Assembly: GCA_037440445.1 (NCBI GenBank)
Contig: JBBIUA010000003.1
Span: 128,040 to 192,039, forward strand
Origin: Ignavibacteria bacterium
Lineage (GTDB): Bacteria > Bacteroidota > Ignavibacteria > Kapaibacteriales > UBA2268
Direction of reading: 5' to 3'
Length of the DNA: 64,000 bases
Of this stretch, positions 853-49,100 are shown piece by piece. The notes below the pieces were generated by a model. That model saw nothing but the letters and a program-made list of their open reading frames with translations, searched no databases and was not told the origin of the DNA. Within the stretch, counting starts at the first letter, position 1. Each line of letters starts with the position of its first letter. The position numbers and the translations under genes were made by a program.

Positions 853-1815
853 TTGTCAAACATTAACATTTTAGAAATGCAAAGCAAATCGGATAATATT
901 CGACTTTCAATTTCAGAAAGAACAAAAACACAGTTGCGAGAACTTCTAAAAAATCCTTTAGATGTAACCAAATTGGATTTACATCTTCGCGAACTCGAAG
1001 AGATCCCTTTTGAAATTTTTCAATTTAAAAATTTAAGGGAATTAAACTTAAAAAATAATCACCTAAAAAAACTACCCCAAGAGATTGCAATACTTCAATC
1101 TTTAGAAAAATTAGAACTTGGCGGGAACTCCTTTGGAGAATTTCCTGACGTTATTACTAAACTTGAAAATCTGAAATATTTGGACTTAAGTTGGAATGCA
1201 ATTAGTTCGTTACCCGATTCAATTGGAAACCTTAAGAAATTAGAAACTTTAAACTTAAACAACAACCAATTAACTCAATTACCCGAATCCATCTGCAAAC
1301 TTACAAATCTAAAAAACCTTGCTATTCACAACAATTTCCTAACAACTCTTCCATCTGACATTGGAAATCTAACTAATTTAGAAGAGCTTTATGCTTTCGA
1401 AAACAAACTCGAATCTTTACCAGATTCAATTGGTAATTGCAAGAAACTTCGCAAATTGGAACTTCAACAGAATTTTCTTGCCGAAATACCAAACGAAATT
1501 GGCGAATTGGAAAAATTGGAAAAACTCCGACTTTATAAAAATATGCTACGAAAATTGCCTTCGGAGATTGGAAAACTCCAAAATCTTACAAAACTTTTAC
1601 TTTATGAAAATCAAATCGCCGAACTTCCAGAAACCATAGGAAATCTTACGAATCTTATTGAGTTTGATATAAGCGGGAATGAATTGATGGCACTTCCAGA
1701 AAGTTTTTACAATTTGAAGAACTTGTCGCGCATTTCACTTGCAAATAACCACTTCCCAAAAGATTTCGTTTTCATATTACGCGAAAGATTTCCAGCATCG
1801 ATTATAGAATTTTAA
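853..1815 (+). CDS. Leucine-rich repeat (LRR) protein, no signal peptide
   Basis: About twelve tandem 23-residue LxxLxLxxNxLxxLPxxIGxL repeats (LRELNLKNNHLKKLPQEI, LETLNLNNNQLTQLPESI, and so on). The N-terminus is hydrophilic. Confidence 0.8.
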   Translation: MSNINILEMQSKSDNIRLSISERTKTQLRELLKNPLDVTKLDLHLRELEEIPFEIFQFKNLRELNLKNNHLKKLPQEIAILQSLEKLELGGNSFGEFPDVITKLENLKYLDLSWNAISSLPDSIGNLKKLETLNLNNNQLTQLPESICKLTNLKNLAIHNNFLTTLPSDIGNLTNLEELYAFENKLESLPDSIGNCKKLRKLELQQNFLAEIPNEIGELEKLEKLRLYKNMLRKLPSEIGKLQNLTKLLLYENQIAELPETIGNLTNLIEFDISGNELMALPESFYNLKNLSRISLANNHFPKDFVFILRERFPASIIEF

Positions 1816-8150: not shown

Positions 8151-8186
8151 TCCTTAGAATATGAAAAGTCAATATTTAAAAAACTT

Positions 8187-8215
8187 GGGGCGGATTTCCC
8201 GCCCCACTATTTTTG
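8187..8215. terminator. Rho-independent terminator hairpin GGGGCGG-ATTTC-CCGCCCC followed by a T-run
   Basis: Perfect 7-bp GC-rich stem read directly, then ACTATTTTTG. Sits between convergent ahcY and the 1153-aa gene and can act in both directions. Confidence 0.65.
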
Positions 8216-8224
8216 GGGGTTGCT

Positions 8225-11200
8225 TCATGGGTTCAAAAGGAACTTCTTATAAATCACTCCTTTTGGAGTTGTTATCCTAACAAAATAAACACCGAATGGA
8301 ACAGAAGATGTATTCCAAACGAAGAACATTGTTGGATTAGCATTTCCGAAAACTAATTCTCCTATCTGATTATAAATATTAATTTCCCTTATCTCCCCTT
8401 CGAATCGAATTTCTTGCAAATTGTTAATTTCAGTTACCTTAACAAATTCATCGGGTTTTTGTTCATCAGTAGAATTAATATTTTTCACAATAAATTTTTT
8501 GGTTTCCGACCAGTCACTTTCCAGTTTGCCCGAAAACACTTTAACTCTCCAGTAAAACCAAGTCTCGGCTGGTGCAGAATTAAGTTCATAGGTGTTTTGA
8601 TTATATAAAATAGCTTGTTTCATAATAAATTCAAATTCTGGGTCGTAAGCAATCTGGAAAGTATAAAATGCATCGGCTGTTGTAAATTCCCAAGAAAATT
8701 CAATTGGTAGTTCAAGATACGAACCCTCTTCAGGTTGGAATAGAGTTGGTTCCCGTAAAGAAGTAATAAATGAAAATATTTCACTCCAAAAACTTGTTGA
8801 AGTTTGATTTACAGCGCGAACCCGCCAAAAATACCTCGTCCCATACGAAAGTTTAGAAATCTGATAAGAAGTATCGGTAGTTTGTTCGTCGATAATCAGA
8901 TTTGCAAAGACTGGGTCGGTTGAAATTTGTAGTTCGTAATAATCGGCTTTATCGACAGAAAGCCAGCGAAGATGGTCGGTTATCTTCAAATTCAGAATAT
9001 TATTTTCTGGATAAACCAGAGTTGGGAATGTCAAATAATTTTCTGGTACGGTTTTAAACCAAGAAATTTCCGACCAAGGGCTTTCCAAATCGTCTTTCAT
9101 TGCCTTTACACGCCAAAAGTAACGTGTCGAATATGCAAGATTGCGATAGACAAAATATGTCGAACCAACCACAACGTATCTTTCCACTCCCATAAAGAAA
9201 TCAGGGTCTTCTGAAATTTGAACTTCATATTTGGTTGCTCCAGCAACTTCATTCCAACGAAGCAAACCAGTGATCGGAGCCAAAGTGTCGGCAAACGGAG
9301 GGACTAAAAGTCGGGGCTTGGGTAATTGAGTTGTAAAAGTAAACACTTCGGACCATTGACTATTACCTGATTCGCCAGTAGCACGTACTTTCCAATAATA
9401 AACAGTTGCAGGTTCAAGGTCGGAATATTCGAATTGTTCACTTTTAACATCGACAATTTCTACCTGATTATTAACAAATTGTTTATCCGAAGAAACTACC
9501 AAGTAATAATGTATTGCTCCAGGAACTGGACTCCACCGTAAAATTCCACTTATTGGGATATTCTTTGCTTGATTCTCGGGGAAAATTAGAAATGGACTTG
9601 CAAGCATAGTTCGAAACTTTCGTATTTCGGACCATATTCCATATTGTTCGCCACGAACAAGACGAACCCGCCAGAAATATTCCGTATAATAATCCAAATC
9701 ATCCACATTAATAATGGGATTTTGAACAATTGTATCCTTTACAATATTTTTGAAATTTTTATCCAATGCTAACTGAAATTGGTAACCCCAAGCATTGTCG
9801 CTTGCAAGCCATTGGAATTGAACCATTAAGGGCATGTCAATCGTGCTATCCAACGGAGAAAGTAAATTAATTCTTTCATAGATAGTCGTGAATGATTGAA
9901 CCTCCGACCAAATGCTAACGCAATTTTCACGCTCCGAACGAATCCGCCAGTAGTAGGTTTTGCCAGGAAGTAATAAGGAAGAGGAAAAGACATAGAAAGT
10001 GTCCACAATGCTTGCAGTATCTTTAATCAAAATTTGAAAATTTTGGTCAGTGGCTATTTGAATATGATAATTTTCGCCAAGAACATAACGACTCCACCGA
10101 AACGCAGGGGTTAATGAAACATTAATTTCGTTATTTGCTGGCAAAATTGGTTTTGGAACACCAATACTACCAGAACCGATGCAATATTCACCAACCCCAG
10201 CAAAGACAGTTTCAAGTCTATTATAGTGACTATTGTAGGTTGTAGTTAGTTCTCTGAATTCTCCTTCTCCTTCATTTGAGCGATAATACACTTTAAAATC
10301 AGTGGCAGAATTAAATCCACTTAATCCAGACAAATTAAAGTACAGATAACCCGAAACAAAATTACTTCCCTGCTTTGTTATTACCCACCGATAAGGTAAT
10401 ACAGAACAAGGACCACCTTGATTCAAATTATGTGGTGGATATCGGTGTTTTTCAACTGTAATTTTCCCTGTTCCACTTAAACTGCTCAAAATTAATGTTG
10501 TATTTGTATTATACATACTGTTTACAAAATTGTATTCTCCGGCAATCTCAATCGGTAAAGTTACAGCATCCATTTTGAAAATAAATTTATATGCGCGATA
10601 TGTACCAAATGTAGAGATAAAATCCAAAGCAACTTGTTTCGAGGGAGTAACTTCAGTCAGCAAGTGATTATGACCACCTTCAGACATCGCTCCGCCCCAC
10701 GCAATCAATGTATTTCCATTTGGTAGCCTTTGAGCTCCACCTGCTGCTGGAGAAGCAGTGTTTAATGGTGAACGATACTCCCAAACTTTTGTTACTCGAC
10801 GATTGGCTTCGTCAATTTGGTATTCTACTGCACGCGAAAACCTACTACTATTTGGACGCAAATTACCATTATCGAAAAGCAGAATGTTGCCATTAGATAG
10901 CTCTCTGGGGTCGTGTTGGTGCGAAAATCCGAAAAAATTATCTATGGTATCATTAACAAAAGTAAATTCATTGTTACGACATCTACTACCACCCATCCTC
11001 CAGATTATTTCACCTGTTTGCTTATTAATCTTAGTAATTTCATCCATATGGCGGCAAGAAATTAATAGATTACCATCGCTAAGAAGCTCTATTGAATTGA
11101 TGTGAAATGGGCGAATATAACTTGCTTGAAGATCAATATCATCAGTTGCATCCAAAACAGAAAAGTGGTCTATTGCATTCCATTGCCAAACAACCCGTCG

Positions 11201-11686
11201 TGTTCGGTAGTCGATTTCCTGCAAAATAAAATTATTCACTCGTGCATTAGGATGCCCATTGGGCACATATCGCGACATATCAATGTATACATCAGCTTCG
11301 GCAATTACAAGATAATTACCATTAGGAAAAATAAGGAAATCGTGAAAATCAGTGGAATATCCCACAGCTCCTACAGTATCTATTACATTAAAATTCGAAT
11401 CGAGAACGAAAATGCGGGAAGATAAAATATCATAAGCCGAAAGTTTCCCATTCGGGTGCATTTTGAAGTCAATAAATCCATGGTTAACAAAACCAAAATT
11501 CTTATAGTAAGCCTTTTCGCCACTATGGTCGTAAACTGCCAAGGATTGGTCCATTGGTGCCAAAAATAAATATCCCGGTTCAGGATTATTCCAAGTAGTT
11601 ATTTGGATTAGGTCCTCATCTGCAAAAAGAATATTTACTACCTGCAAATGCAGAATAATTACCAGTAATATTTTAATTGTTTTCAT
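8225..11686 (-). CDS. Secreted arylsulfotransferase(ASST)-like beta-propeller protein with ~6-7 FN3-like repeats and a T9SS C-terminal sorting domain
   Basis: Signal peptide. The N-terminal ~350 aa carry HINSIELLSDGNLLISCRHMDEITKINKQTGEIIWRMGG and QRLPNGNTLIAWGG, an ASST-type propeller. There are repeated ~90-aa units ending YYWRVRA/YFWRVKA...WSE. The C-terminus ...FGVYFVRITTPKGVIYKKFLLNP is a T9SS CTD. Confidence 0.55.
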   Translation of the reverse strand: MKTIKILLVIILHLQVVNILFADEDLIQITTWNNPEPGYLFLAPMDQSLAVYDHSGEKAYYKNFGFVNHGFIDFKMHPNGKLSAYDILSSRIFVLDSNFNVIDTVGAVGYSTDFHDFLIFPNGNYLVIAEADVYIDMSRYVPNGHPNARVNNFILQEIDYRTRRVVWQWNAIDHFSVLDATDDIDLQASYIRPFHINSIELLSDGNLLISCRHMDEITKINKQTGEIIWRMGGSRCRNNEFTFVNDTIDNFFGFSHQHDPRELSNGNILLFDNGNLRPNSSRFSRAVEYQIDEANRRVTKVWEYRSPLNTASPAAGGAQRLPNGNTLIAWGGAMSEGGHNHLLTEVTPSKQVALDFISTFGTYRAYKFIFKMDAVTLPIEIAGEYNFVNSMYNTNTTLILSSLSGTGKITVEKHRYPPHNLNQGGPCSVLPYRWVITKQGSNFVSGYLYFNLSGLSGFNSATDFKVYYRSNEGEGEFRELTTTYNSHYNRLETVFAGVGEYCIGSGSIGVPKPILPANNEINVSLTPAFRWSRYVLGENYHIQIATDQNFQILIKDTASIVDTFYVFSSSLLLPGKTYYWRIRSERENCVSIWSEVQSFTTIYERINLLSPLDSTIDMPLMVQFQWLASDNAWGYQFQLALDKNFKNIVKDTIVQNPIINVDDLDYYTEYFWRVRLVRGEQYGIWSEIRKFRTMLASPFLIFPENQAKNIPISGILRWSPVPGAIHYYLVVSSDKQFVNNQVEIVDVKSEQFEYSDLEPATVYYWKVRATGESGNSQWSEVFTFTTQLPKPRLLVPPFADTLAPITGLLRWNEVAGATKYEVQISEDPDFFMGVERYVVVGSTYFVYRNLAYSTRYFWRVKAMKDDLESPWSEISWFKTVPENYLTFPTLVYPENNILNLKITDHLRWLSVDKADYYELQISTDPVFANLIIDEQTTDTSYQISKLSYGTRYFWRVRAVNQTSTSFWSEIFSFITSLREPTLFQPEEGSYLELPIEFSWEFTTADAFYTFQIAYDPEFEFIMKQAILYNQNTYELNSAPAETWFYWRVKVFSGKLESDWSETKKFIVKNINSTDEQKPDEFVKVTEINNLQEIRFEGEIREINIYNQIGELVFGNANPTMFFVWNTSSVPFGVYFVRITTPKGVIYKKFLLNP

Positions 11687-11694
11687 AGGTTACC

Positions 11695-14610
11695 TCAATT
11701 TTTGAAAATAATAAGAGGTAGTCGATAAATACTTCTATTTGTGTGCAAAACGAAATAATATAAACCATTAGGAGGATTCGTTAAATCTACTTCTTGATTG
11801 CAAGCAGGGGAACGAAACTGATTTATTTCCATTTCTCTTAAACCCATTATATTAAATATTTCAATCTTAATGACTTCCTCATCCCTGTTTTGAACGATGA
11901 TTTTTCCACTCGAAGGATTTGGATAAATCAGAATTGAAGATGTTTGTTCAAATACACTACTTGGCTCCGAAATAGAAAAAATTTGGCTTTCGGCATAAAT
12001 ATTTTTATTTTTTAAAGAGGTAATACGAACTTTGTAATCATCGCCAACAGGCAACAAATTCGAAACATTCCAAATGTATTTACCAAATGCACTGTAAATT
12101 GAATCTGATATATTCATTATTGGGGCATTCCCTTTGAATAGTGTAATCACGAAAGCAGGATATATGTTATGCTTCCACTCAATTTTTACATCCCTTTCCT
12201 TAAGCCATTTATCGCCACTTACAGGTGAAACAATTGTTACAAATGGCTCTTTAACCTCAAATGTATACTCATCGGACCACTCACTTGTCCCGTAGTTGTT
12301 TACTGCTCTAACTTTCCAACTATATTTCCCCACGGGCAATTTTCCAAGATTTAAAATGTTTGTCTTCAACACATCGAAAGTTGCTTCGGCAGGAAATGTA
12401 CCATCAATTTTTTTAAATAAAAGTTGAGAATGATTCACATTTCCTCTGGGGGTCCATTGACAAACCACTGCCTCCTCGGTATTCAAAACGGAATTATTTG
12501 CTGGGTAGGTTAAAATTGGTTTCAAAGGCATTGAAGCAAAATCTTGGGTACCAAAAATATATTCACCGTCAAGAGTTTCTACACTCGCAAAAAGAAGATT
12601 GCCAAGTGTGTCATAAATTGATTCCAATGGTTCAAAAGGTTCATCGGGGGACATTCGCCGAAATACTATAAGATTTTTCCTATGCAAACACAAAGGAAAT
12701 TTATTCAGGTCGAAACCCAGAAGCACTTTCGATTTTGTTATCTTTTCGGTTTTAATTATGACTTTATACTGATTAACCAAGGGTGAAGAGCCAACAAAGC
12801 GAGGATAAAGAGGTGCGTTTGGATACTTTTCTAAAGTGATTTTTGAACCATCCTCGTCGGTCAATTCTTCGAAAATTGCAAAAACACCTGTATTGATATT
12901 GGCGTTTTGGAAATCCAAGATACTATCGGGAATTAACTGAGAAATATTTTCAAATGATACAATTGCTTCCGGAACAATTGTAGGATATGGGAAACGATAA
13001 GCCCGATAAGAAGTTGTTTGGAAAGAGACCCCTTTAGGGAAAGACAATTCAAATTCTATTTCGCCAGCGGGATTAACTTCGGTTACAATCCGAATATGCC
13101 CCGAATTCACGCCACCCCAACCAATAACAGTATTACCATTTGGAAGGCGTTGTGTCGAACCCATTGTTTCCCCAAAAATGTCAGGATTATTCCGGTATTC
13201 CCAAACGAGTTCTGCGGTTAAGTTCTGTTCATCCAATTTATATTCAACTGCGCGAGAATAAGGTGGATTGTGTTGATTCCCGTTGTCGTAAAGTGTTATA
13301 TTTCCATTGGGAAGACGACGAATATCATGTTGATATGAAAAGTAAGTAGGCTCGTTTTCGGGATGTTCATTAAAAAATTTAAATTGGTTTTTCTTTCCAC
13401 CAAGTCGCCAGATTATTTCACCTGTTTCACGGCTTATTTTTGTAATTTCAGAAAGATGCCGCGAAGATATTAACAAATGTCCATCGTAATCCAATTCAAC
13501 AGCATTAATGTGAATAGGGTCGACGGCAATACCATTTAGCGGGGCGTAACTATCAGTTATTGGGATGTAGTCCCAACTTCGCCATTGAAAGACGACATTT
13601 TTATCAGCATCCAATTCTTGAACAATGCTTCCAAGTACAATTGCATTAGGATTACCTTCGGGAATGATTTGGCTCATATCAACTGGTTGCGGGTCGTATG
13701 AAATAAGGAGGTAGTGACCATTGGGCAACATTTTAAAATCGTGAAAATCTGCAATATACCCGCCCTGACATTGGATTGTGTCGATAATTTTTAAATCAGG
13801 GTCCATAACTTCCATATATGCTTCAGCCCAGCCCCAACCCTGTGGAATATGGGATGTAATTATATGACCATTGCTCAACAACCCATTTGGTTGCACCTTG
13901 AAATCGAAGCCAGGAAGAGGAACTTTTTTATATTTTACTGGCTTCCCGTCATTATCGAGAATCATTAGGTAGCTTCTGTCGACTCCACTTCCAAAATTTG
14001 CAAGATAAATGTATCCAGGAGCAGGATTGCGAACGGAATCAATAATAATCTTTGGAAAATCAGCAGGAATTGAATCTTGAAGTATATCTTCGCTAATGGT
14101 TTTCTCAACCTGATTGAAACTTAAAAGGGCTTTGCTTATTTCGGGAAAGCTGTCTGAAAAATATTTTACAAAAATTTTCTTCTGCTCGAATGGGGTGATT
14201 TTGGAGGTTCGGAATGAATATTTTTCTCCTGTAAATTCGATTAAGACTTCTTCATCTGTGGCAAATAATCTATGTACTTTGATTGAAATTGTTCTTTTAT
14301 CGTTAGAAAGATTAATATCAAAACTATGTTCCCCACTTTTTTCTCCAACAATCTTAAATTTGCTAAAAATGTCGCTGAAATTTATTTCTCTGTCAAATCG
14401 AAGAATTATTGGAGTTTGTAGCGAATGCATATTTGTGTTGGGCACGGGATATATATATGTTAATTTTTGACTAAATAAAGGATAATTCAAGAAGCAAAGT
14501 AGGAAAAGAGAAAATATTCTATGCATATTTAACCTTGGTTTTATTACTTTAAACAATGAATAACTATTTTTTGGCTGATTTGTTACATTTTTGTAATCTT
14601 TCATACTCAT
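11695..14610 (-). CDS. Paralogous ASST-like beta-propeller protein with Ig/FN3-like domains and a T9SS C-terminal sorting domain
   Basis: Aligns blockwise with the upstream gene (NPAPGYIYLA, HINAVELDYDGHLLISSRHLSEITKISRETGEIIWRLGG, QRLPNGNTVIGWGG). The C-terminus ILIYPNPSSGKIIVQN...GLYYFVLHTNRSIYRLPLIIFKN is a T9SS CTD. Confidence 0.55.
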   Translation of the reverse strand: MSMKDYKNVTNQPKNSYSLFKVIKPRLNMHRIFSLFLLCFLNYPLFSQKLTYIYPVPNTNMHSLQTPIILRFDREINFSDIFSKFKIVGEKSGEHSFDINLSNDKRTISIKVHRLFATDEEVLIEFTGEKYSFRTSKITPFEQKKIFVKYFSDSFPEISKALLSFNQVEKTISEDILQDSIPADFPKIIIDSVRNPAPGYIYLANFGSGVDRSYLMILDNDGKPVKYKKVPLPGFDFKVQPNGLLSNGHIITSHIPQGWGWAEAYMEVMDPDLKIIDTIQCQGGYIADFHDFKMLPNGHYLLISYDPQPVDMSQIIPEGNPNAIVLGSIVQELDADKNVVFQWRSWDYIPITDSYAPLNGIAVDPIHINAVELDYDGHLLISSRHLSEITKISRETGEIIWRLGGKKNQFKFFNEHPENEPTYFSYQHDIRRLPNGNITLYDNGNQHNPPYSRAVEYKLDEQNLTAELVWEYRNNPDIFGETMGSTQRLPNGNTVIGWGGVNSGHIRIVTEVNPAGEIEFELSFPKGVSFQTTSYRAYRFPYPTIVPEAIVSFENISQLIPDSILDFQNANINTGVFAIFEELTDEDGSKITLEKYPNAPLYPRFVGSSPLVNQYKVIIKTEKITKSKVLLGFDLNKFPLCLHRKNLIVFRRMSPDEPFEPLESIYDTLGNLLFASVETLDGEYIFGTQDFASMPLKPILTYPANNSVLNTEEAVVCQWTPRGNVNHSQLLFKKIDGTFPAEATFDVLKTNILNLGKLPVGKYSWKVRAVNNYGTSEWSDEYTFEVKEPFVTIVSPVSGDKWLKERDVKIEWKHNIYPAFVITLFKGNAPIMNISDSIYSAFGKYIWNVSNLLPVGDDYKVRITSLKNKNIYAESQIFSISEPSSVFEQTSSILIYPNPSSGKIIVQNRDEEVIKIEIFNIMGLREMEINQFRSPACNQEVDLTNPPNGLYYFVLHTNRSIYRLPLIIFKN

Positions 14611-16449: not shown

Positions 16450-18456
16450 ATGAAAAGGTTTTACTCTTTGACCCTAATTCTTCTTGCAGTTTTGAGTATT
16501 TCCTTGAACGCTCAATACGTTCGGCGAGTTATAGTCGAAGAAGCCACAAACGCATCTTGCGGACCTTGCGCTGCCCAAAATCCCACTTTTCAAAAGTGGT
16601 TGTCAAATCATCTCGACCGTGTAATTCCAGTTATTTATCACGCTTGGTGGCCCGGTCCTAATGACCCAATGTATTTATACGATACAATTATGAATAAAAC
16701 TCGAATTCAATATTACGGAATAACCGGTGTTCCAAGCGGTAGGATCAATGGAAAGATTGCTACTCCATCTGGTTCATATTACGCAGGAGCCGTCGCCGAT
16801 ACAGTGGCATTAACCAACGAACTAAAACAAACTCCTTTTTACTCATTCATTAGTGTTTCCATTATTGATTTCAACTTTAATACTAATGATGGCTCTGGTT
16901 CCGTTAAAATCGAAATTGCAAGCGATATACCTCTTTCAAACAAATTTTTGCGGGTAGCAATTTGCGAAGAACATCACTACTATGAAAATGCTGGAACTAA
17001 TGGCGAAAAAGACTTCTACTATCTTGTTAGACAAATGCTTCCCAATGCAAGAGGAACTCTCTTTAATATTGCCGCAGGAGAATCTCAAACCTTCGAATTT
17101 ACTTTCAATGTTGATCCATCTTTTACCGACGACTTGTATGCTGTTGCTTTCATTCAAGACGAAGCTAATAAAGAAATTCTTCAAGGCAACTGGACTAAAA
17201 GCACTAACACAACAGAACCTGATTTCTATGTAATGTTAACAACCGATAACCTTGTTAATGTTGGGAATACCAACGACGTTTTCCAGTATGAATCGCTGGT
17301 TTTGAACAACACACCCGAAGAAGTCATTTTCGATTTAAGCATTTCAGGCGATATTCCATCCGACTGGACAGCAAAAATTGATAAAGATTTAACCCAACTA
17401 GTAGCTCCACCAAAATCTAAGGCAAATGTTACTGTAATTGTCCAAATTGGCTCGACACCAACATCGGCGGAAGTTTTGCTTAACTTAAAAAAGAACACAA
17501 ATAATACTGAATTAACTACTTCTTCTATGAAAGTTTATCATTCAGGAATTCAAAGACTACATATACTTGGTGGTGAGCAGAAACATTCTATTATGCCTAT
17601 TATAGAATCATCATTTGGCAAAGGATATGTATCGGACATTTCTTTGGATGATATGAGTGCTAATGCTTCAAAATTCAACTCCCTAAAAACAATAATCTGG
17701 GATGGGAGCACTTCTGGTGATTTCACTGCTTCCTCGGCTAACATCATAACAAACGCAATAAGTAATAACAGAAATATTTTCATTCTTGGAGGTAGAATTA
17801 CCCCTGGTCTAATTTCAAATGGAATCTTACCATACTTTGGTCTTGCTTTTATTGCTTACTGCCGCGAAGGTTACTATTCTCCATACTCTGTAACTCTTGC
17901 TGGCGTTCCTGGTGACCCAATAACTGGCGATTTTGGAAATAATATTCAAGGAAATTTGATTAATTACTTGTTACCTCTATATCGAATTGTTAACAACCAG
18001 ACTACAAGTCCAATTATGACATTCGCAAAATCGGCAGACTCAATTTTCGCTGTAAAAGTTGAGTTTAATAAATCGCGTGCTATTGTTTTGGGTATGAATC
18101 CTTTCATACTTTCCAACCAAACAATCCGCGAAAAATTAATTACTCGCTCACTACTATGGCTCGAAGGCATTTCTAATGTTGGTTTAGAGGAACTCGATGT
18201 AGATATTTCAATTTCCCCTAACCCAGCTTCGAATATTGCCTACTTAACAATGATTACAAAAATCCCCACCGAGAATATTGTTGTGCGGTTGCACGACATT
18301 CAGGGACGAACTTTAAGGACAATATTCGAAGGAACTTTAAACGAAGGAACAATTACAATTCCCATTTCTCTTGCAGGTTTGCCACCCCAAACAATCTATG
18401 TAACTATTGAAAGTAAAATCGGAAGCAAATCAATTAAACTGATTAAGGCTGAATAA
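16450..18456 (+). CDS. Secreted T9SS cargo protein with an N-terminal CGPC thioredoxin-like/Omp28-like domain
   Basis: Signal peptide. EEATNASCGPCAAQNP carries a CxxC motif. The C-terminus ISISPNPASNIAYLTM...IYVTIESKIGSKSIKLIKAE is a T9SS CTD. RBS AAGGGGG. Confidence 0.5.
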   Translation: MKRFYSLTLILLAVLSISLNAQYVRRVIVEEATNASCGPCAAQNPTFQKWLSNHLDRVIPVIYHAWWPGPNDPMYLYDTIMNKTRIQYYGITGVPSGRINGKIATPSGSYYAGAVADTVALTNELKQTPFYSFISVSIIDFNFNTNDGSGSVKIEIASDIPLSNKFLRVAICEEHHYYENAGTNGEKDFYYLVRQMLPNARGTLFNIAAGESQTFEFTFNVDPSFTDDLYAVAFIQDEANKEILQGNWTKSTNTTEPDFYVMLTTDNLVNVGNTNDVFQYESLVLNNTPEEVIFDLSISGDIPSDWTAKIDKDLTQLVAPPKSKANVTVIVQIGSTPTSAEVLLNLKKNTNNTELTTSSMKVYHSGIQRLHILGGEQKHSIMPIIESSFGKGYVSDISLDDMSANASKFNSLKTIIWDGSTSGDFTASSANIITNAISNNRNIFILGGRITPGLISNGILPYFGLAFIAYCREGYYSPYSVTLAGVPGDPITGDFGNNIQGNLINYLLPLYRIVNNQTTSPIMTFAKSADSIFAVKVEFNKSRAIVLGMNPFILSNQTIREKLITRSLLWLEGISNVGLEELDVDISISPNPASNIAYLTMITKIPTENIVVRLHDIQGRTLRTIFEGTLNEGTITIPISLAGLPPQTIYVTIESKIGSKSIKLIKAE

Positions 18457-18558: not shown

Positions 18559-21441
18559 TTATTTTACTACTAAAAAAAGCTTTTGCTTAAGTTCTTCCCC
18601 AATTTGAATTTGGAAAATGTAAGAACCTGAAGACAATCCTTGAAATGCCTCATCTAAACTAATGATATTCAATCCTGTTTCAAGATGAACATCTTTCTGC
18701 CAAAAAATTCTATTAAGCATATCGAGTATTTTAATTCGTGCAGTTCCAAACTCATTCGTAGTTAACTTAATCTCATTAGCCGTTTCGTTTGATATTATTT
18801 CTGGTATACCAACTTTCAATCCATAATAATCATTTCCCACACTTAAAGTAGTATCTACTAAACCCACGAAAATATTATCGAACCAGACCGTTCCCGAATG
18901 TGCACGGAATAAACAATAAACTGTAGCATAAGCAAGGGGTTTCTCTGGGTAATAAATTGTTTCGGAATATTCCCAATCGTGAGTTCCTGTTGAAAACTTT
19001 GTAATTCGACCGTACCAAGGTGTTCCATCGGTGTAGTATGCATCAACATAAATGGAGTAATTTTGGTCTGATGTTCCTGAAACATTCTCTGCTTTCGACC
19101 AACCTGAAACTTTCAGAGGCAGAATAGTATTATTAGGAAAATAAATAGTTACATACATCCCGCCGGAATCCTGCTCGGTTTTGTTGACAAACTTTACGCA
19201 TCGGTTTAAATGTTGGGCATTAGTTGGAATTGTATCATACTCAAAATCCGACACATTTTTTCTTATGTATAATCTCCAAGAGTCTGGAATTTGATCGAAA
19301 TCTACATCATATTCAAAACTGAAATTAGGAACAAGGTTAGTTGTATCCACATTTTCTATTTCAACAGGAGCGTATCCAACTGAAAACAGTCCAGTCGTCG
19401 AAAAAACAACAAAAGGTATTGTAAGATTTTTGAAAATACCTCCAGCGGGAAGTACAATCTGTCCCGTAAATTCCGAAAAATTAGAATTTGCTGGGGTTCC
19501 ATCGTTCTTCAATTCCAAATCGTAAGGAACACCTATTTTTGTCAAATCAGCAATTACATACAGAGGTAAAGAAGCATTCGATTTGAATAAATCGGACGAT
19601 GAATCGGCTGCTTGAACTGAAAATTCAAACTGAACTTGGCTTGGATTTATTGATTTAATTTTTGCAATAGGATTTCGCCAAATCGGTGACATCAATATCG
19701 GCTCTTCTCCCTCATTCTTCAAAATTATCTTTGCACTATGAGGTAGCAAAAGTGAATCGCTTTTAATTGTATATAACGTTCCCCCGCTAATTGTTAAAGC
19801 ACTATCGACCATCACCTGGTTTTTTCCGTTAATTTCTGGTAGAACAATGGTATCGTTCGCATTAGGGTTAACATATACAATGCATTTTTCAAACCCCCGA
19901 GAATAATAACTTTTACCAAAATTATCGAGTCTTAGTAAATCATCAATCGAGTTCGTTGCATTTGTGATTGGTTTACCTGTAAGAATATCGAATTCTGGAA
20001 AATGAGCAAAAGTTTGATAATTTGTAGCATTTCCAAAAACAGAATTTGTATCGGCAACTAACAAATAGGAAGCGGTAACAAATAGCCTTGGTTCGGGGCT
20101 AAAATCCTTAATTCCACCCAAAGGAACCCACATCCTACCATAATCGTATTGACACCTCAACCCAAGTTCGCAAGCAGTTTTCCAATTTGATAAGGAACTA
20201 TATCCTGCCCAATGAGAATAAACAAAACCCTCGTACATTGCTCCATCGACATAATTGAGTGCTTCTAAACTCGGTGTTGCTAATCCATTATATATTATCA
20301 TTTTGTCGTCACAAGCTTTTCTTAACTCTTTGAAGAAATCAAAAAAACTTTCGAACCAAAGGTTCTCATCATAGTCCACAGGAGGATATGCATCTGGCCA
20401 TAAACTCCAAATTCGGTAGCCAGCATCGTCGACAAATACTCCATTATACCCTTGCGAAAATGCTTTCAAAACTTGTTCTATATAATTTTCCCGCCACATA
20501 TTACTCACAATGTTCATAAAATAGAACTTATATGTTGGATTTATGCAACGATTGTTAATATTCCCAAGCCATGAACCCTCTTTTGGATAACGATACATTT
20601 TCCCATCCTTAAAACAAACGAGATAAACCTCGTAACCAGTTTCTAAACCATTGATTAAAAGTTGATTAATGGAAATTGTATCTAAATCATAAGAAAATAC
20701 AAATTTCTCATTTTCGGAAAATTTATTATCGTGGGAAAGATCAACATAAACCCACACACTGTCCGGGTAGACTTTCGATAGGAGTAGAAATTTATAATCT
20801 AAGTAGGCATTATTGGAAATTGCCTCACGTTTTAAAGACAAAGGAATATAAATAGGTATGTTATCCTCGTAAAATAATTTTAAGACAAAACTATAATCGA
20901 TTTCTATCGTGTCGTCCAGAACTGTTTTCAATCGAACAAAACGGGCAGATTTTGGTAAAGAAATATTCAGTTCTGTCCCATCTACCAGAGTATCTGTCGG
21001 ATAATTAACATTTGTTGAATCGAACCCCCAATAAAGACGATATTTAACATTACCAGGAGTAAAACGGCGGTCGTGCATCCATTTGAATTTCCAATTGTGG
21101 TCATAAGTAATTGTTAAGCAAGAAGGTTCCGAAGAATGAAGAAATAGAAATTCTTGCAAGTTCATTTTGTTATACTCAGAAAGGTATGTATTCAAAGCAA
21201 CAAGGTCTTTGTAGTAAAGAATTGGATAATCTTTGTCGAAGGACCGAATGAACGCTCGTTCTTTCTGTTGTGCTTCGTCGAGAAAGATAAATCTTTTATG
21301 TGCAAGTTTGGTAAGGAAAAAATCAGATTTTATAGCAGAGTAATTGACAAGATAAGATTTTAAAAAATGCGAGCGGTAGTCATTTGGCAAAGAATAAAGA
21401 TTGACTATTGAAAGAAATAATAAAATAAATAAAAGTTGCAT
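18559..21441 (-). CDS. Large secreted protein, putative glycoside-hydrolase-like TIM-barrel domain, T9SS C-terminal sorting domain
   Basis: Signal peptide. The central region GYNGVFVDDAGYRIW...YNGLATPSLEALNYVDGAMYEGFVY...GRMWVPLGG resembles GH-like TIM barrels. The C-terminus ...LSSGSYIFQIQIGEELKQKLFLVVK is CTD-like. Strong SD AGGAGGGAG precedes the ATG at 21441. The family call is weak. Confidence 0.35.
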   Translation of the reverse strand: MQLLFILLFLSIVNLYSLPNDYRSHFLKSYLVNYSAIKSDFFLTKLAHKRFIFLDEAQQKERAFIRSFDKDYPILYYKDLVALNTYLSEYNKMNLQEFLFLHSSEPSCLTITYDHNWKFKWMHDRRFTPGNVKYRLYWGFDSTNVNYPTDTLVDGTELNISLPKSARFVRLKTVLDDTIEIDYSFVLKLFYEDNIPIYIPLSLKREAISNNAYLDYKFLLLSKVYPDSVWVYVDLSHDNKFSENEKFVFSYDLDTISINQLLINGLETGYEVYLVCFKDGKMYRYPKEGSWLGNINNRCINPTYKFYFMNIVSNMWRENYIEQVLKAFSQGYNGVFVDDAGYRIWSLWPDAYPPVDYDENLWFESFFDFFKELRKACDDKMIIYNGLATPSLEALNYVDGAMYEGFVYSHWAGYSSLSNWKTACELGLRCQYDYGRMWVPLGGIKDFSPEPRLFVTASYLLVADTNSVFGNATNYQTFAHFPEFDILTGKPITNATNSIDDLLRLDNFGKSYYSRGFEKCIVYVNPNANDTIVLPEINGKNQVMVDSALTISGGTLYTIKSDSLLLPHSAKIILKNEGEEPILMSPIWRNPIAKIKSINPSQVQFEFSVQAADSSSDLFKSNASLPLYVIADLTKIGVPYDLELKNDGTPANSNFSEFTGQIVLPAGGIFKNLTIPFVVFSTTGLFSVGYAPVEIENVDTTNLVPNFSFEYDVDFDQIPDSWRLYIRKNVSDFEYDTIPTNAQHLNRCVKFVNKTEQDSGGMYVTIYFPNNTILPLKVSGWSKAENVSGTSDQNYSIYVDAYYTDGTPWYGRITKFSTGTHDWEYSETIYYPEKPLAYATVYCLFRAHSGTVWFDNIFVGLVDTTLSVGNDYYGLKVGIPEIISNETANEIKLTTNEFGTARIKILDMLNRIFWQKDVHLETGLNIISLDEAFQGLSSGSYIFQIQIGEELKQKLFLVVK

Positions 21442-24731: not shown

Positions 24732-27700
24732 CTATAAATCATCAAAATTTGGAAACCTACCTGGGGTCCAAGGAGCCCCAACCTTGTCCAACTCTTTTTC
24801 GAAAGATGGAATTTCCGCTTCAACAACTTTTTTCAACTTGCTTAATACTTCTTTTAATTCCTCTTTAGCAATTTCAAATGATTTCTTTTGTGTTTCGGTG
24901 GGTTCTTGAGTTGTACTCCAAAGACCCGTAAGAATATAACTCAGTCGTTCGATTATCGAGGGTGGTTGATTCTCATTCAATCGAGCAATTGTCTGATTCC
25001 CAGAAAGTTTCATCTTCAAAGAATCAAGTAGATAGCCAATTTCTCGCAATTTATTCAAACTTGCATCTTCAAATTGGTTCGAGGAAAGAAATGCATTTTT
25101 TATAATCTGAATTTTTTTGGTCGTTTCGTTGAGAAGCGAGTTTGTACCCATCACTGCATTTTGAAGTTTCGCAACTTTTCGTCGAAAATTCAAAAGCGAA
25201 GTCAAATCCTTTGGTGGCAAGGAAAGATTATTCAATAACTTGCATTCAAATTCTACAGGCTTGGTCATTGGTGAAATTTTTCCATCGACGCTTTTGAACA
25301 TTTGTACTTTGTATTTTCCAGGAACAACCGCCATCCCAGAATTATAGTTTAAATTCACACTATCGGAAATTGGTTCAGTATTTGGATAACGTAAATCCCA
25401 AGAGATACGATTAAAACCAGGGCTTGGATTTTTAATAAGAGTTCTAACAATATTTCCGTCGCTATCATAAATTTTAAAAATCAAAAGTGGACTTTGCTCC
25501 AAATCCTCGGATGTAAGTTCTTCAAATGGCGGATAATAAACAGGTTTTCCTTCCTTTTCTATTTCTTTTTCTTTTTCCCTACGAATCTCCTTTCGAGTTT
25601 TAATCTTCTCTTTTAGGTAATAGGTAAAAGTAGCGCCAAATGGGGGATTTTCTGCCCGCCAAAATGAACTACCATTTTCGTATTTAATTCTTGATTCATC
25701 TTCATTATAAATTAAAGCAGGTTTAACAGGGAAAATAACAGCTTCTTTTGATAAAACTTCATCGTTCAAATTCCTAAGGAATGAAATATCGTCCAGAATA
25801 TAAATTCCACGACCAAAAGTTCCTACAACAAGGTCGTTTTCTCGTTTCTGGATTTCAAGGTCCCGCACTGCAATAGTTGGGAAATCGCCAGTGAGTTTAA
25901 GCCAATTCTTTCCTTGGTTTGTGGAAACAAAAAGACCAAACTCAGTACCAACAAACAATAAGTTTGGGTCAATAAAATCCTCGACAATAGTATAAACCGA
26001 GCCATTTAAAGGAAGATTTGAACTAATATTTATCCAAGTCTTGCCTAAGTCAGTAGACTTTAAAACATAAGGTTTAAAATCGGCATTTTTATGGTTATCG
26101 AAAGTAGCATAAATAACATTCTGGTTATGGTTGGAAGCAAATAAATCGCTAACATATGTAGTTTCGGGGACGAAGGGAAACTTATCGATTTTACGCCAAG
26201 TATTTCCACCATCGGTTGTTATTTGAATCAAACCATCATCAGTTCCAACAATAAGCAAATTTTCATTCAAGGGAGATTCAGCAAGCGAAACAATGTTCCC
26301 ATAAAAGGAAGTAGAAGCATTCTTAGCAACAGCATCGGGTCCCCAAATTTTGCCCATTACAGGAAGTTTATTCCTATCTATTTGGCGAGTCAAATCCCCG
26401 CTGATTGCTTTCCAACTTTGCCCTTGGTCGTCGCTACGAAACACTTTATTTGAAGCAATATATAATCTAGTTGGTGAATGAGTACTTAACAACAAAGGAG
26501 TATCCCAATTCCATCGTAAAGCTTCGCCTTTTTCAGGCTGCGGTTGAATATAGTACACCTCTCCACTTTTCCTATCGTAACGAACCAAATTCCCATATTG
26601 CCACATTGCATAAACAATATTAGTATTTCTGGGGTCAACTTGGGCTTTGTAGCCATCGCCGCCTACAACAAGGTACCAGTCCTCGTTTGTTATTCCCCCT
26701 CTGGAAGTTGTTCTCGAGGGTCCACCCCAAGTATTGTTGTCCTGCGTTCCTCCATAAACAAAGTAAAAAGGTTCAGTGTTGTCGCAAGTTATTCTATAAA
26801 ATTGTCCAGTGGGGATATTTGCAAAGAATCTCCAAGTTGAACCATTGTCAAAGGTTTCATATAACCCGCCATCTCCACCAACCATAAAATGCTTTGTGTT
26901 ATCGGGGTCAATCCAAACTGCATGGTCATCGACGTGGCGATTGTTATTTGGAACTTTTTGTAAAGTTTTGCCACCATCTTCAGTAACTCTTAAATAAGTG
27001 TCGATAAAGAAAACTCTCTCGGGGTTTTTAGGGTCGCAAAAAACTTCGTGATAATATTGTGCTGAGCCAGAAAACCAAGAATTTCGCTTTTCCCACGAAG
27101 CACCGCGGTCAGTGGAACGATAAATTCCCCCTTTTCCATCATTCCCTTCAATTATTGCATAAATATAATCAGGATTTGCTGGGGAAATTCCCAACCCTAT
27201 TCTTCCAAGTTCACCAGTGGGTAAACCATTTTCGAGTTTTTCCCAACTATTTCCCCCATCAGTTGTTTTATAAATTGCAGCCTCTGGACCACCATTAATC
27301 AATGTCCAAACATGTCTTCTCCTTTGATAAGTTGCACAATAGAGAACATCAGGATTTCGAGGATCCATTACAACATCGGTAACTCCAGTATTTTCACTAA
27401 TTTTCAATACCTGTTGCCAACTTTGCCCTCCATCAGTCGTTTTATATAAGCCTCGGTCACCGCCCGGACCCCAAAGGGGTCCCTGTGCTGCAACATAAAC
27501 GATATCAGAACTCTTTGGATGAATAATAATTTTTCCGATATGCTCGGAATTTTTGAGACCCATATTTTTCCAGGTTTTACCACCATTTGTTGATTTGTAA
27601 ACACCATCACCCCACGAAACACTTCGTTGGCTGTTATTTTCCCCAGTTCCTACCCAAACAATGTATGGGTTGTTTGGGTCAATTGCCAAGCAACCTATTG

Positions 27701-27995
27701 AAAATGAACCTTCTTTGTCGAAAATTGGGGCAAAAGTTGTGCCTGCATTGGTGGTTTTCCAAACACCTCCGGATGCAAACGATACATAGAACTCGTTTTT
27801 ATTAAATGGGTTAACAGCAATATCGGAAATGCGACCACCAAAAACTGCTGGGCCAATAAGCCGTAATTGAATATTGCTGAAATCAATTATCACAGAATCG
27901 GTTTCATTGGAGTATTTCTTTTCAGGTGGTTTGGCAAAAGAATGATTTACAAGTAAATAGAAAATTAAAAGCGAAATTAACTTAATTTTTAACAT
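24732..27995 (-). CDS. Secreted BNR/Asp-box repeat protein (sortilin/VPS10- or GH74-like double propeller), 1087 aa
   Basis: Signal peptide plus at least 10 S/T-x-D-x-G-x-T/S-W Asp-box repeats (TTDGGQSWQQV, TTDGGNSWEKL, STDRGASWEK, SDDQGQSWKAI, TTDGGNTWRKI, STDLGKTWINI, STNQGKNWLKL). The C-terminal third is coiled-coil-like. Confidence 0.6.
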   Translation of the reverse strand: MLKIKLISLLIFYLLVNHSFAKPPEKKYSNETDSVIIDFSNIQLRLIGPAVFGGRISDIAVNPFNKNEFYVSFASGGVWKTTNAGTTFAPIFDKEGSFSIGCLAIDPNNPYIVWVGTGENNSQRSVSWGDGVYKSTNGGKTWKNMGLKNSEHIGKIIIHPKSSDIVYVAAQGPLWGPGGDRGLYKTTDGGQSWQQVLKISENTGVTDVVMDPRNPDVLYCATYQRRRHVWTLINGGPEAAIYKTTDGGNSWEKLENGLPTGELGRIGLGISPANPDYIYAIIEGNDGKGGIYRSTDRGASWEKRNSWFSGSAQYYHEVFCDPKNPERVFFIDTYLRVTEDGGKTLQKVPNNNRHVDDHAVWIDPDNTKHFMVGGDGGLYETFDNGSTWRFFANIPTGQFYRITCDNTEPFYFVYGGTQDNNTWGGPSRTTSRGGITNEDWYLVVGGDGYKAQVDPRNTNIVYAMWQYGNLVRYDRKSGEVYYIQPQPEKGEALRWNWDTPLLLSTHSPTRLYIASNKVFRSDDQGQSWKAISGDLTRQIDRNKLPVMGKIWGPDAVAKNASTSFYGNIVSLAESPLNENLLIVGTDDGLIQITTDGGNTWRKIDKFPFVPETTYVSDLFASNHNQNVIYATFDNHKNADFKPYVLKSTDLGKTWINISSNLPLNGSVYTIVEDFIDPNLLFVGTEFGLFVSTNQGKNWLKLTGDFPTIAVRDLEIQKRENDLVVGTFGRGIYILDDISFLRNLNDEVLSKEAVIFPVKPALIYNEDESRIKYENGSSFWRAENPPFGATFTYYLKEKIKTRKEIRREKEKEIEKEGKPVYYPPFEELTSEDLEQSPLLIFKIYDSDGNIVRTLIKNPSPGFNRISWDLRYPNTEPISDSVNLNYNSGMAVVPGKYKVQMFKSVDGKISPMTKPVEFECKLLNNLSLPPKDLTSLLNFRRKVAKLQNAVMGTNSLLNETTKKIQIIKNAFLSSNQFEDASLNKLREIGYLLDSLKMKLSGNQTIARLNENQPPSIIERLSYILTGLWSTTQEPTETQKKSFEIAKEELKEVLSKLKKVVEAEIPSFEKELDKVGAPWTPGRFPNFDDL

Positions 27996-47300: not shown

Positions 47301-47514
47301 AGTCGAAGAATTTTCCAAGGTACGAGATAAATTCGCTGGCATCGAGGATTGGTTTACACTCGCTCTTCTTAATCTGGGGGAACTTTTCGAACAACAAGGC
47401 AACACAGAAGAGGCAATTAACTGCTACCGCTCTATCCTTGCAACTCGCGAACCAGACGACTATACGAAAACTGCAAAACGCCGTCTCCAACTCATTGAGC
47501 AAAAATCAAAATAA
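44353..47514 (+). CDS. Giant tetratricopeptide-repeat protein with signal peptide (YbgF/CpoB-like TPR units throughout), ~1050 aa
   Basis: At least 15 TPR-like 34-mers (AYLIASRFDEAILEYNDFITKFPHSKY, ALFWLAEAYYRSDMLQNAIDKYETFIAKYPNSKY, and so on). The start is TTG 44353 or GTG 44365 (MKKIIFLVICF...). Confidence 0.75.
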   Translation: MNFRVKKIIFLVICFINYFQILFHTESQAQLIDTKIDYPTNTYFDVLDLLNNGLLKPSGKEITQLLENNHNFPAYEKSVLLQSQTEFFSGRVEFAKKLLEKFLNSNPKSLYAPYFYENLGNFSFEIKQYEDASKYYLLAVQGGQKEYALRKDYSYFELSGRCLYWNGVAKLMNGKVDASKEAFETCFRNYQKSSIADDALYFLGLISEMKGEEETAINYYKTLQKQYPYSNVLLASKIREASNYVTLRQDAQALVALDFAERIYTKMQIRDSLGLLYEKQDYSEDIEEKIKFLRGEAYLIASRFDEAILEYNDFITKFPHSKYLLDTKLKIGLALLEKGDFLKSIEQFDRIITECKGEDLQQKQLAELYRAMANRRLGRLSEAQNLLSELVTRSNYSFSSIVLLELGMIYYEKKEFDKANKTFERGLRESTDNLITAKLNLMLGATNLELKNYSRAIQYYKTAEELAKRATNVQMPNKNWFIAETRLKQAIAQIYSFRNAEAIPNLLYVIGNFPYDQRSEEALFWLAEAYYRSDMLQNAIDKYETFIAKYPNSKYREEALYGLGWSYFRLKNFRKSSDIFAKLLAEFPSSKYNVEVWLRQGDGYYVLKDFKNAIESYRKVINLSPKSEEAQYANYQICHSLYKMGNLNDAYNQGLEFIKKYPNSAYAPNALYLAAWIKFQQKEYSEAINSFNFLIDAYPNSLLVPRARYAIADALYNMSKFEESAKVYQEILDKYPSSPLVADALRSLQYCYIALGREQEAMQIADEYINRNPESPFAMDFILKKGQMFYTGKNYKNAIAEFQNFIQKFPESDKKPEALFWMAKSYQSLGESANVINLFNEIISKYKSSEFAPQSMLELGLIYKTNANIQLADSLFTQLQEQYSDSPESAQAGFEQASIRFTLGDTASAIQIWKKIANNFEGTEYGDQSLYKIAMYYRLSGAYSEAIREFTRLASSSLDPNLAAESQYRLGEIYYRIGNREKAVEEFSKVRDKFAGIEDWFTLALLNLGELFEQQGNTEEAINCYRSILATREPDDYTKTAKRRLQLIEQKSK

Positions 47515-47525
47515 CGAGGTGAAGA

Positions 47526-49099: not shown

Positions 49100-49100
49100 T

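Follow-up and report, generated by a model that had tools for sequence, protein, structure and literature searches.

Two adjacent minus-strand genes in a 64,000-nucleotide stretch of DNA from an Ignavibacteria bacterium (Kapaibacteriales; contig JBBIUA010000003.1, positions 128,040 to 192,039), referred to here as the window, encode large proteins built around a beta-propeller of the aryl-sulfate sulfotransferase (ASST) family and ending in a sorting domain of the type IX secretion system (T9SS). The two open reading frames (ORFs), gene B (11695..14610, 971 aa) and gene A (8225..11686, 1153 aa), lie exactly where a preliminary description of the locus had placed them, and the motifs it quoted were found in the translations as PFHINSIELLSDGNLLISCRH...ITKINKQTGEIIWRMGG...QRLPNGNT in A and PIHINAVELDYDGHLLISSRH...ITKISRETGEIIWRLGG...QRLPNGNT in B. 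An identical copy of the locus is present on a Logan contig of run SRR11582170. We consider it reasonably probable that A and B are sulfuryl transferases independent of 3'-phosphoadenosine 5'-phosphosulfate (PAPS), belonging to the branch of the ASST family typified by the Streptomyces enzyme Cpz4, exported by the T9SS and encoded by an anciently diverged operon pair.

Family membership, fold and active site

Both proteins scored far above the Pfam cut-offs for the family, with 122.5 bits for A and 109.6 bits for B in PF05935 (Arylsulfotrans, cut-off 24.2 bits) and 96.2 and 97 bits, respectively, in PF14269 (Arylsulfotran_2, cut-off 27 bits). When a family profile built from 25 members was used against PDB sequences, Cpz4 (9kf4/9kf6) was matched across the whole propeller at E 1e-50 and the E. 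coli ASST (3elq) at E 8e-12. The AlphaFold2 (AF2) model of the A propeller had a mean pLDDT of 88.1 and a pTM of 0.86, and the model of B aa 29-700 had a pLDDT of 83.6. Foldseek searches with both models returned Cpz4 first (A: E 4e-24, TM-score 0.75-0.77; B: E 2e-29), followed by the E. coli ASST (E 1e-15 and E 7e-18), with NHL, YVTN, BtuG and WD40 propellers appearing only at E 1e-10 or weaker. Identity as a PQQ, YVTN or NHL propeller was rejected, as no such Pfam match was obtained and the Foldseek matches of this kind were distant; the YVTN structure 1l0q, for example, was matched at E 2e-8 and a TM-score of 0.46, compared to E 4e-24 and 0.77 for Cpz4.

The active site of the E. coli ASST comprises His436, which is transiently sulfated, together with His252, His356, Asn358, Arg374 and Thr501 (PMC13426309); these roles were taken from that 2026 review, and the chain numbering of 3elq is the published numbering. 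HMMER alignment to 3elq, in three aligned segments, placed A residues H115, H195, N197, R212 and H258 on His252, His356, Asn358, Arg374 and His436. H258 lies within an FSHQH motif whose Q-H falls on Q435-H436 of 3elq. The equivalent residues in B are H290, H367, N369, R384 and H428. The catalytic histidine and its four partners are therefore present in both proteins, and the same five residues occur without exception in all 122 sequences compared, namely A, B and their 120 best homologs. A Gln-Arg pair within QRLPNGNT is also invariant across the clade. By profiles, fold and catalytic residues, A and B are members of the ASST family in its Cpz4-like branch, which bears out the family assignment of the preliminary description; neither a better-fitting propeller family, nor loss of the catalytic histidine, nor failure of the C-termini in sorting-domain models was found.

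Cpz4, from caprazamycin biosynthesis in Streptomyces sp. MK730-62F2 (PDB 9KF4/9KF6), is the closest characterised relative by both sequence and fold. It carries the same five residues at aligned positions, in the form of HD, HxN, xR and QH, and like A it has no E. coli-type N-terminal domain ahead of the propeller. Cpz4 is PAPS-independent and accepts p-nitrophenyl sulfate (pNPS) and 4-methylumbelliferyl sulfate (MUS) as donors (PMC13426309). It differs from A and B in being a 472-aa antibiotic-cluster enzyme without a sorting domain or fibronectin type III (FN3) or immunoglobulin (Ig) modules, in using a sugar hydroxyl of a liponucleoside as its acceptor, and in having Gln-Leu where the A/B clade has the invariant Gln-Arg.

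The AssT enzyme of E. coli CFT073 (PDB 3ELQ, 3ETS, 3ETT, 4P04-07) shares with A and B the Pfam family, the propeller fold (E 1e-15, TM-score 0.68) and matches to His252, His356, Asn358, Arg374 and His436, and is ~16-18% identical to them over the structural alignment. It is a periplasmic homodimer with an N-terminal seven-stranded sandwich and a single essential disulfide, introduced by the DsbL/DsbI proteins of the same operon (PMC13426309). In contrast, A and B are predicted to be exported by the T9SS and lack the conserved cysteine pair, nearby Dsb genes and a clear equivalent of Thr501. The only propeller cysteines are Cys 211 and 236 in A and Cys 281 in B, and window scans found no dsb or other thiol-oxidoreductase genes flanking the pair. 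Because the conserved cysteine pair is absent, the DsbL/DsbI-dependent disulfide has no counterpart in A or B, and with no dsb gene nearby, dependence on Dsb proteins was rejected. The preliminary description had taken the periplasmic, DsbL/DsbI-dependent enzymes as its point of reference; this was mistaken, as Cpz4 is far closer. The N-terminal sandwich of AssT is also missing from A. B does have an Ig-like sandwich in this region, weakly matched by Big_5; with it included in the B model, the TM-score to 3elq was no higher than for A (TMt 0.47-0.49 in both searches).

Among ASSTs of Bacteroidota, BvASST of Phocaeicola (Bacteroides) vulgatus resembles A and B in not being purely periplasmic, as it is a predicted lipoprotein, and it is the only non-periplasmic ASST described in the literature searched. 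Sulfonation of its His471 has been shown, a wide variety of phenolic compounds serve as its donors and acceptors, and its authors considered the lipoprotein behaviour unusual among studied ASSTs (PMC12809581). BvASST has been grouped with the classical cluster I ASSTs (PMC13426309). By description it differs from A and B in having a lipid anchor instead of a T9SS sorting domain, in being encoded by a single gene and in lacking an FN3 stalk.

Sorting domains and their distribution

The C-termini of A and B were scored with TIGR04183 (cut-off 23 bits), PF18962 (cut-off 27 bits) and an additional custom hidden Markov model (HMM) of the T9SS C-terminal sorting domain (CTD). TIGR04183 was matched at the extreme C-terminus of both proteins, by A with 27.2 bits (aa 1098-1151) and by B with 28.5 bits (aa 895-964), and the custom HMM gave E 1e-14 for A and E 5e-15 for B. 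B also passed PF18962, with 33.1 bits, and A narrowly missed this model, so the earlier claim of canonical CTDs in both proteins stands for TIGR04183 and for B in PF18962. Sec signal peptides were recognised in A and B by inspection of the sequence. The most likely destination of A and B is the cell surface or the medium. The surface display proposed in the preliminary description would be one of two outcomes, since cargo with a type A CTD may be either anchored or released.

Known T9SS type A cargo is built along similar lines. The xylanase Xyl2091 of Melioribacter roseus, a CTD-tagged enzyme from the Bacteroidota/Chlorobiota group (PMC8857248), is representative of proteins that have a Sec signal, a catalytic domain, Ig/FN3 spacers and a CTD of ~70-85 aa. 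In A and B the catalytic domain is an ASST propeller, while cargo such as Xyl2091 carries a glycoside hydrolase or protease.

The preliminary description regarded T9SS deployment of an ASST as unusual; the distribution of the family contradicts this. A CTD was detected by the custom HMM in 101 of the 120 nearest homolog clusters (at least 84%), most of the remainder being fragments, and PF18962 occurs together with the ASST domains in most of these 120 best clusters. A genome scan covering one genome per species, in which 571 of 600 listed pattern matches were confirmed as relatives, located more than 570 such loci in species-representative genomes of Ignavibacteria, Kapabacteria and Bacteroidota and in a Cloacimonadales metagenome-assembled genome (MAG). 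Among the matches listed, the closest was in Candidatus Kapaibacterium sp. Ch6 (CP058732.1, 77% identity), followed by other Kapabacteria MAGs (71%) and then by Ignavibacteria, Bacteroidota and a Cloacimonadales MAG. Across 78 loci there are 118 propeller ORFs, 92 of them terminating in a CTD, and 26 loci have two to five propeller genes in tandem. When 1.84 billion representatives were searched exhaustively with phmmer, 10,674 relatives were obtained at E <= 1e-3, and at E <= 1e-30 there were 1,448 clusters at 50% identity; a CTD ends 90 of 140 further best 50%-identity representatives. Among the phmmer relatives, long forms typically carry two to four FN3 repeats, placing the six repeats of A at the upper end. 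Judged by these sequences, T9SS deployment of ASST propellers is common in related bacteria. The names "aryl-sulfate sulfotransferase" and "T9SS type A sorting domain-containing protein" are already in use for such proteins at NCBI, and no paper describing T9SS-borne aryl sulfotransferases was found in the literature searched.

Much heavier amplification than the window pair was seen at four Bacteroidota and Ignavibacteria MAG loci (L036 2-9472, L010, L020 and L029), at which four or five ASST-propeller genes follow one another in an array. All five genes of L036 end in a CTD, as do two or three of four in L010, L020 and L029, loci that usually end within the last gene. In a few relatives (P0254, 4031 aa, and P0122-P0124) two or three ASST-like propeller stretches are combined in a single polypeptide.

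Two further genes beside the pair may encode secreted proteins. A 668-aa protein (16450-18456, plus strand) has an Omp28-related N-terminal region (NF045500 "Omp28-related selenoprotein", 48 bits, cut-off 200), a Cys-x-x-Cys motif, SCGPCAAQ, and a weak CTD-like tail (17.2 bits in TIGR04183, cut-off 23; E 6e-5 with the custom HMM), and its gene may be a third T9SS cargo gene beside the A-B pair. A 960-aa ORF (18559-21441, minus strand) has no Pfam family and a CTD tail that stays below threshold (18.7 bits in TIGR04183, cut-off 23). Together with A and B, these genes would form a run of four probable secreted proteins at 8.2-21.4 kb.

Operon structure, domain layout and conservation of the pair

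B is the first gene of the pair and A the second. They are separated by a spacer of 8 nt (11687..11694, minus strand; TGA-GGTAACCT-ATG), and the ribosome-binding site (RBS) of A, GAGG, overlaps the B stop codon 7 nt before the A ATG. Because of this short spacer and the overlap of GAGG with the B stop codon, B and A are probably co-transcribed and translationally coupled. An intrinsic terminator-like hairpin, GGGGCGG-GAAAT-CCGCCCC, was read directly from the sequence at 8178..8205 (minus strand); it lies 20 nt past the A stop codon, has a T-run 3 nt after the stem and T-runs on both strands, and is located between the convergent genes A and ahcY. Upstream of B lies a divergently transcribed ABC-2 permease gene. 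The spacer with its RBS, the hairpin after A and the divergent permease define B and A as a predicted self-contained two-gene operon. In the window the pair is surrounded by housekeeping genes (accC/accB, efp, metK, ahcY, the ABC-2 permease gene, gyrB, cdsA, clpB and topA), and since the flanking genes also differ between genomes, context is uninformative beyond the pair itself. No propeller copies besides A and B were found by tblastn in the 64-kb window.

All features of A and B described below are on the minus strand. Gene A begins with a signal peptide read by inspection (aa 1-22, MKTIKILLVIILHLQVVNILFA, followed by DED; 11621..11686), the region of which is modelled by AF2 as a helix at residues 2-21. 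The ASST-type propeller with H115, H195, N197, R212 and H258 follows directly (aa ~25-375; 10562..11614), so the N-terminal position that the preliminary description gave for both propellers is correct for A. It is succeeded by a beta-sandwich of ~130 aa that is homologous to one in B by BLASTP alignment and has no Pfam family match (aa ~381-510; 10157..10546). Next are six tandem FN3-like repeats (aa 511-1067; 8486..10156), identified from motif positions, repeat alignment and Pfam, where about seven had been counted earlier. The repeats are 91-96 aa each (511-601, 602-693, 694-786, 787-879, 880-975 and 976-1067), with Pfam scores of 99 bits for Ig_Rha78A_N, 76 bits for Pur_ac_phosph_N and 70.5 bits for fn3. 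The protein ends in the T9SS type A CTD (aa 1068-1153; 8228..8485) recognised by TIGR04183.

The true start of B is most likely Met29 (ATG at 14526), giving a protein of 943 aa. This start is favoured because AAGG precedes the Met29 codon, ATG-initiated B-type ORFs in related loci are of similar length (941 aa in L002 and 965 aa in L004), and a signal peptide is exposed. The signal peptide, read by inspection (aa 29-47, MHRIFSLFLLCFLNYPLFS, followed by QKL; 14470..14526), consists of an n-region and a hydrophobic core with Gln at +1, in keeping with the Bacteroidetes "Q-rule" (PMC5837995). The B propeller is not N-terminal: it lies behind the signal peptide, an Ig-like beta-sandwich (aa ~50-135; 14206..14463) and a helical linker (aa ~140-165). 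The sandwich has a weak Pfam Big_5 match (E 0.012), and AF2 modelled strands at residues 22-107 of the model (pLDDT ~90), with helices at 112-137; PF13205 is frequent among homologs. The ASST-type propeller itself (aa ~185-545; 12976..14058) contains H290, H367, N369, R384 and H428. The beta-sandwich in common with A (aa ~548-690; 12541..12969), supported by the BLASTP alignment and long strands in the AF2 model, again has no Pfam family match. B continues with a single FN3-like repeat of the same type as those of A (aa 695-786, KYSWKVRAVNNYGTSEWSD; 12253..12528; Pfam fn3 E 0.011), a Kre9/KNH-like Ig domain (aa 795-880; 11971..12228; PF10342 28.5 bits, cut-off 24.6) and the T9SS type A CTD (aa 886-971; 11698..11955) matched by TIGR04183 and PF18962.

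A and B are paralogs, as previously proposed, with a BLASTP alignment at E 5e-84 and 33% identity over 721 aa; their propellers alone are ~42-43% identical. The two proteins had been described as diverging downstream of the propeller. They do carry different repeat and Ig modules, but the BLASTP similarity runs on through the ~130-140 aa beta-sandwich and the first FN3 repeat. In a neighbour-joining tree of the propellers there is a clean split between a B clade and an A clade, and the B-then-A order with separate orthologous clades was found in at least 12 related loci. In L002, L003, L004, L009 and L074, the first gene is of B type (~940-1000 aa, with a single FN3 motif) and the gene directly after it of A type (~1150-1165 aa, with five or six FN3 motifs). 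L008, L011, L017 and L050 have one B-type gene and then two A-type genes, and in L007 and L012 a single A-type gene comes after a B-type gene of reduced length. Identity to orthologs is 75-82% for the window B and 60-75% for the window A. The flanks of the pair are mutually different in the three loci compared: the housekeeping genes of the window, a HisKA_3/LuxR two-component system and GNAT/GT1/EamA genes in L009 (Candidatus Kapaibacterium sp. Ch6), and DUF1800/DUF1501 and TolC/HlyD genes in L004. The B-then-A pair is, on this comparison of gene order and phylogeny, an ancient, order-conserved unit, which is a new result of the present analysis. Since the duplication is old, both copies have been kept and their order is fixed, the pattern argues for complementary rather than redundant roles of A and B.

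In Ch6 (L009 38-2817, CP058732.1), the HisKA_3 histidine kinase and a LuxR/NarL-type response regulator are encoded immediately upstream of B-A on the same strand. This two-component pair, which is missing from the window, is a possible dedicated regulator of B-A.

Several other genes in the window were noted in passing. A 1087-aa Sortilin/Vps10-BNR repeat protein (24732-27995, minus strand; PF15902 127 bits) resembles an F510_1955 family glycosylhydrolase (151.8 bits, cut-off 175) and is probably a large secreted beta-propeller protein of glycosidase-like type. A 1053-aa TPR protein, a 679-aa ORF and a 654-aa SPOR-domain protein are encoded in series (44353-51065, plus strand) and may form an envelope or motility-related cluster; the 679-aa ORF overlaps the TPR gene by ~450 nt, its true start probably being later, and has a faint TonB-dependent-receptor-like C-terminus, and the SPOR-domain protein is faintly matched to the gliding protein GltJ (E 2e-4). 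A homolog of the serine protein kinase PrkA (53119-55173, minus strand) and a DUF444 (YeaH-like) protein (59538-60866, plus strand), usually partners in a stress/starvation module, occur in the same neighbourhood. At the window edge, a gene at 853-1815 (plus strand) encodes a 320-aa leucine-rich-repeat protein (LRR_14, 153 bits), a domain uncommon in bacteria.

Proposed mechanism, alternatives and significance

In the mechanism we propose, A and B would cross the inner membrane by means of their Sec signal peptides and fold in the periplasm. The type A CTD would then hand them to the T9SS for passage across the outer membrane, after which it would be removed, leaving the enzyme either surface-tethered or released. 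The propeller would be the catalytic head, operating by a ping-pong mechanism by analogy with the E. coli ASST and Cpz4. A sulfate ester donor would sulfurylate the invariant histidine (His258 in A, His428 in B), the sulfuryl group would be held by His115, His195, Asn197 and Arg212 in A or His290, His367, Asn369 and Arg384 in B, and it would then be passed to an acceptor hydroxyl with no need for PAPS. Sulfotransferases acting outside the cell have only this PAPS-free kind of chemistry at their disposal. The Ig and FN3 modules may serve as spacers or stalks of different length, with the six FN3-like modules of A holding its head far from the anchor and B having only two modules past the shared beta-sandwich.

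A number of observations weigh against this assignment. The CTD of A scored 24.9 bits in PF18962, just under the cut-off of 27. The region of E. coli Thr501 aligns to Ala/Gly before the invariant Gln319-Arg320, in a stretch where the local alignment is unreliable. Cpz4 is only 26-27% identical to A and B, and it sulfates a sugar hydroxyl, so that "aryl" acceptors are not assured; its preference is a warning against assuming that A and B use phenolic acceptors. Neither T9SS core genes (SprA, PorV, PorU and GldKLMN among the machinery components) nor sulfatases, PAPS-pathway genes or candidates for donor synthesis were recognised among the ORFs scanned in the 64-kb window. The T9SS-tagged ASST clade as a whole has been annotated automatically and is experimentally uncharacterised.

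It is also possible that A and B act mainly as extracellular aryl- or organo-sulfatases, in which the same sulfo-histidine is discharged to water and sulfate is released for scavenging or to expose a substrate. An extracellular location would offer sulfated organic matter rather than a dedicated donor, donor-synthesis genes were not seen nearby in the window or in the compared flanks, and the Campylobacter jejuni ASST homolog AstA was reportedly first described through an arylsulfatase phenotype. The sulfo-enzyme intermediate of ASSTs is, however, stable enough to crystallise, and sequence features distinguishing a hydrolase were not seen in A or B. Those ASSTs that have been characterised are ping-pong transferases (PMC13426309), and we regard a mainly hydrolytic role as fairly unlikely. 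A different chemistry altogether, in which the His/His/Asn/Arg/His site acts on an extracellular polymer by hydrolysis or by transfer of another group, for example a phosphoryl group via phospho-histidine, and "sulfotransferase" is a label only, is made decidedly unlikely by the invariance of all five sulfuryl-binding and -carrying residues and by the fact that both solved relatives are sulfotransferases. Such a chemistry would be in line with the low identity of the clade to these enzymes (16-18% to the E. coli ASST, 26-27% to Cpz4), with the lack of a conserved Thr501 equivalent and the presence instead of an invariant Arg320 that is missing in Cpz4, and with FN3 modules of the Rha78A, DUF4962 and purple-acid-phosphatase types, which usually accompany carbohydrate- or phosphate-active enzymes.

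As a further alternative, the propellers might be non-catalytic and serve for binding or adhesion on a surface stalk. The long FN3 stalks are adhesin-like, and the weaker structural matches include BtuG-family surface propeller lipoproteins of Bacteroides and S-layer YVTN propellers. Enzymes are matched far more strongly (E 1e-24 compared to 1e-7), and because the catalytic residues are invariant in 122 sequences that are ~40% identical overall, we consider a non-catalytic role highly improbable.

ASSTs are valued as PAPS-free sulfation biocatalysts, and their physiological roles have been described as poorly understood (PMC13426309). The few that have been studied are all periplasmic, lipoprotein or cytoplasmic pathway enzymes. 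For the locus in the window, the assignment of A and B as T9SS-exported sulfuryl transferases is mainly a corrected annotation: the T9SS-tagged ASST type is common, while the conserved B-A pairing is new. More broadly, the analysis points to a very large Cpz4-like clade that is apparently exported by the T9SS in bacteria of the Fibrobacterota-Chlorobiota-Bacteroidota (FCB) group, often from tandem arrays. We also raise, as a rather unlikely and speculative extension, that the B-A pair is a two-component extracellular sulfation module, in which A and B would have differing donor or acceptor specificities or form a heterodimer, and would together shuttle sulfate between a polymer at the cell surface or outside the cell and sulfate esters of the environment. 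If so, the pair would constitute a PAPS-free system for extracellular remodelling of sulfation that is widespread in Kapabacteria and Ignavibacteria. If the members of the clade are active, they would provide a new pool of naturally secreted sulfotransferases without the Dsb-type conserved cysteine pair, and would imply extracellular exchange of sulfate esters in sediments, mats and bioreactors.

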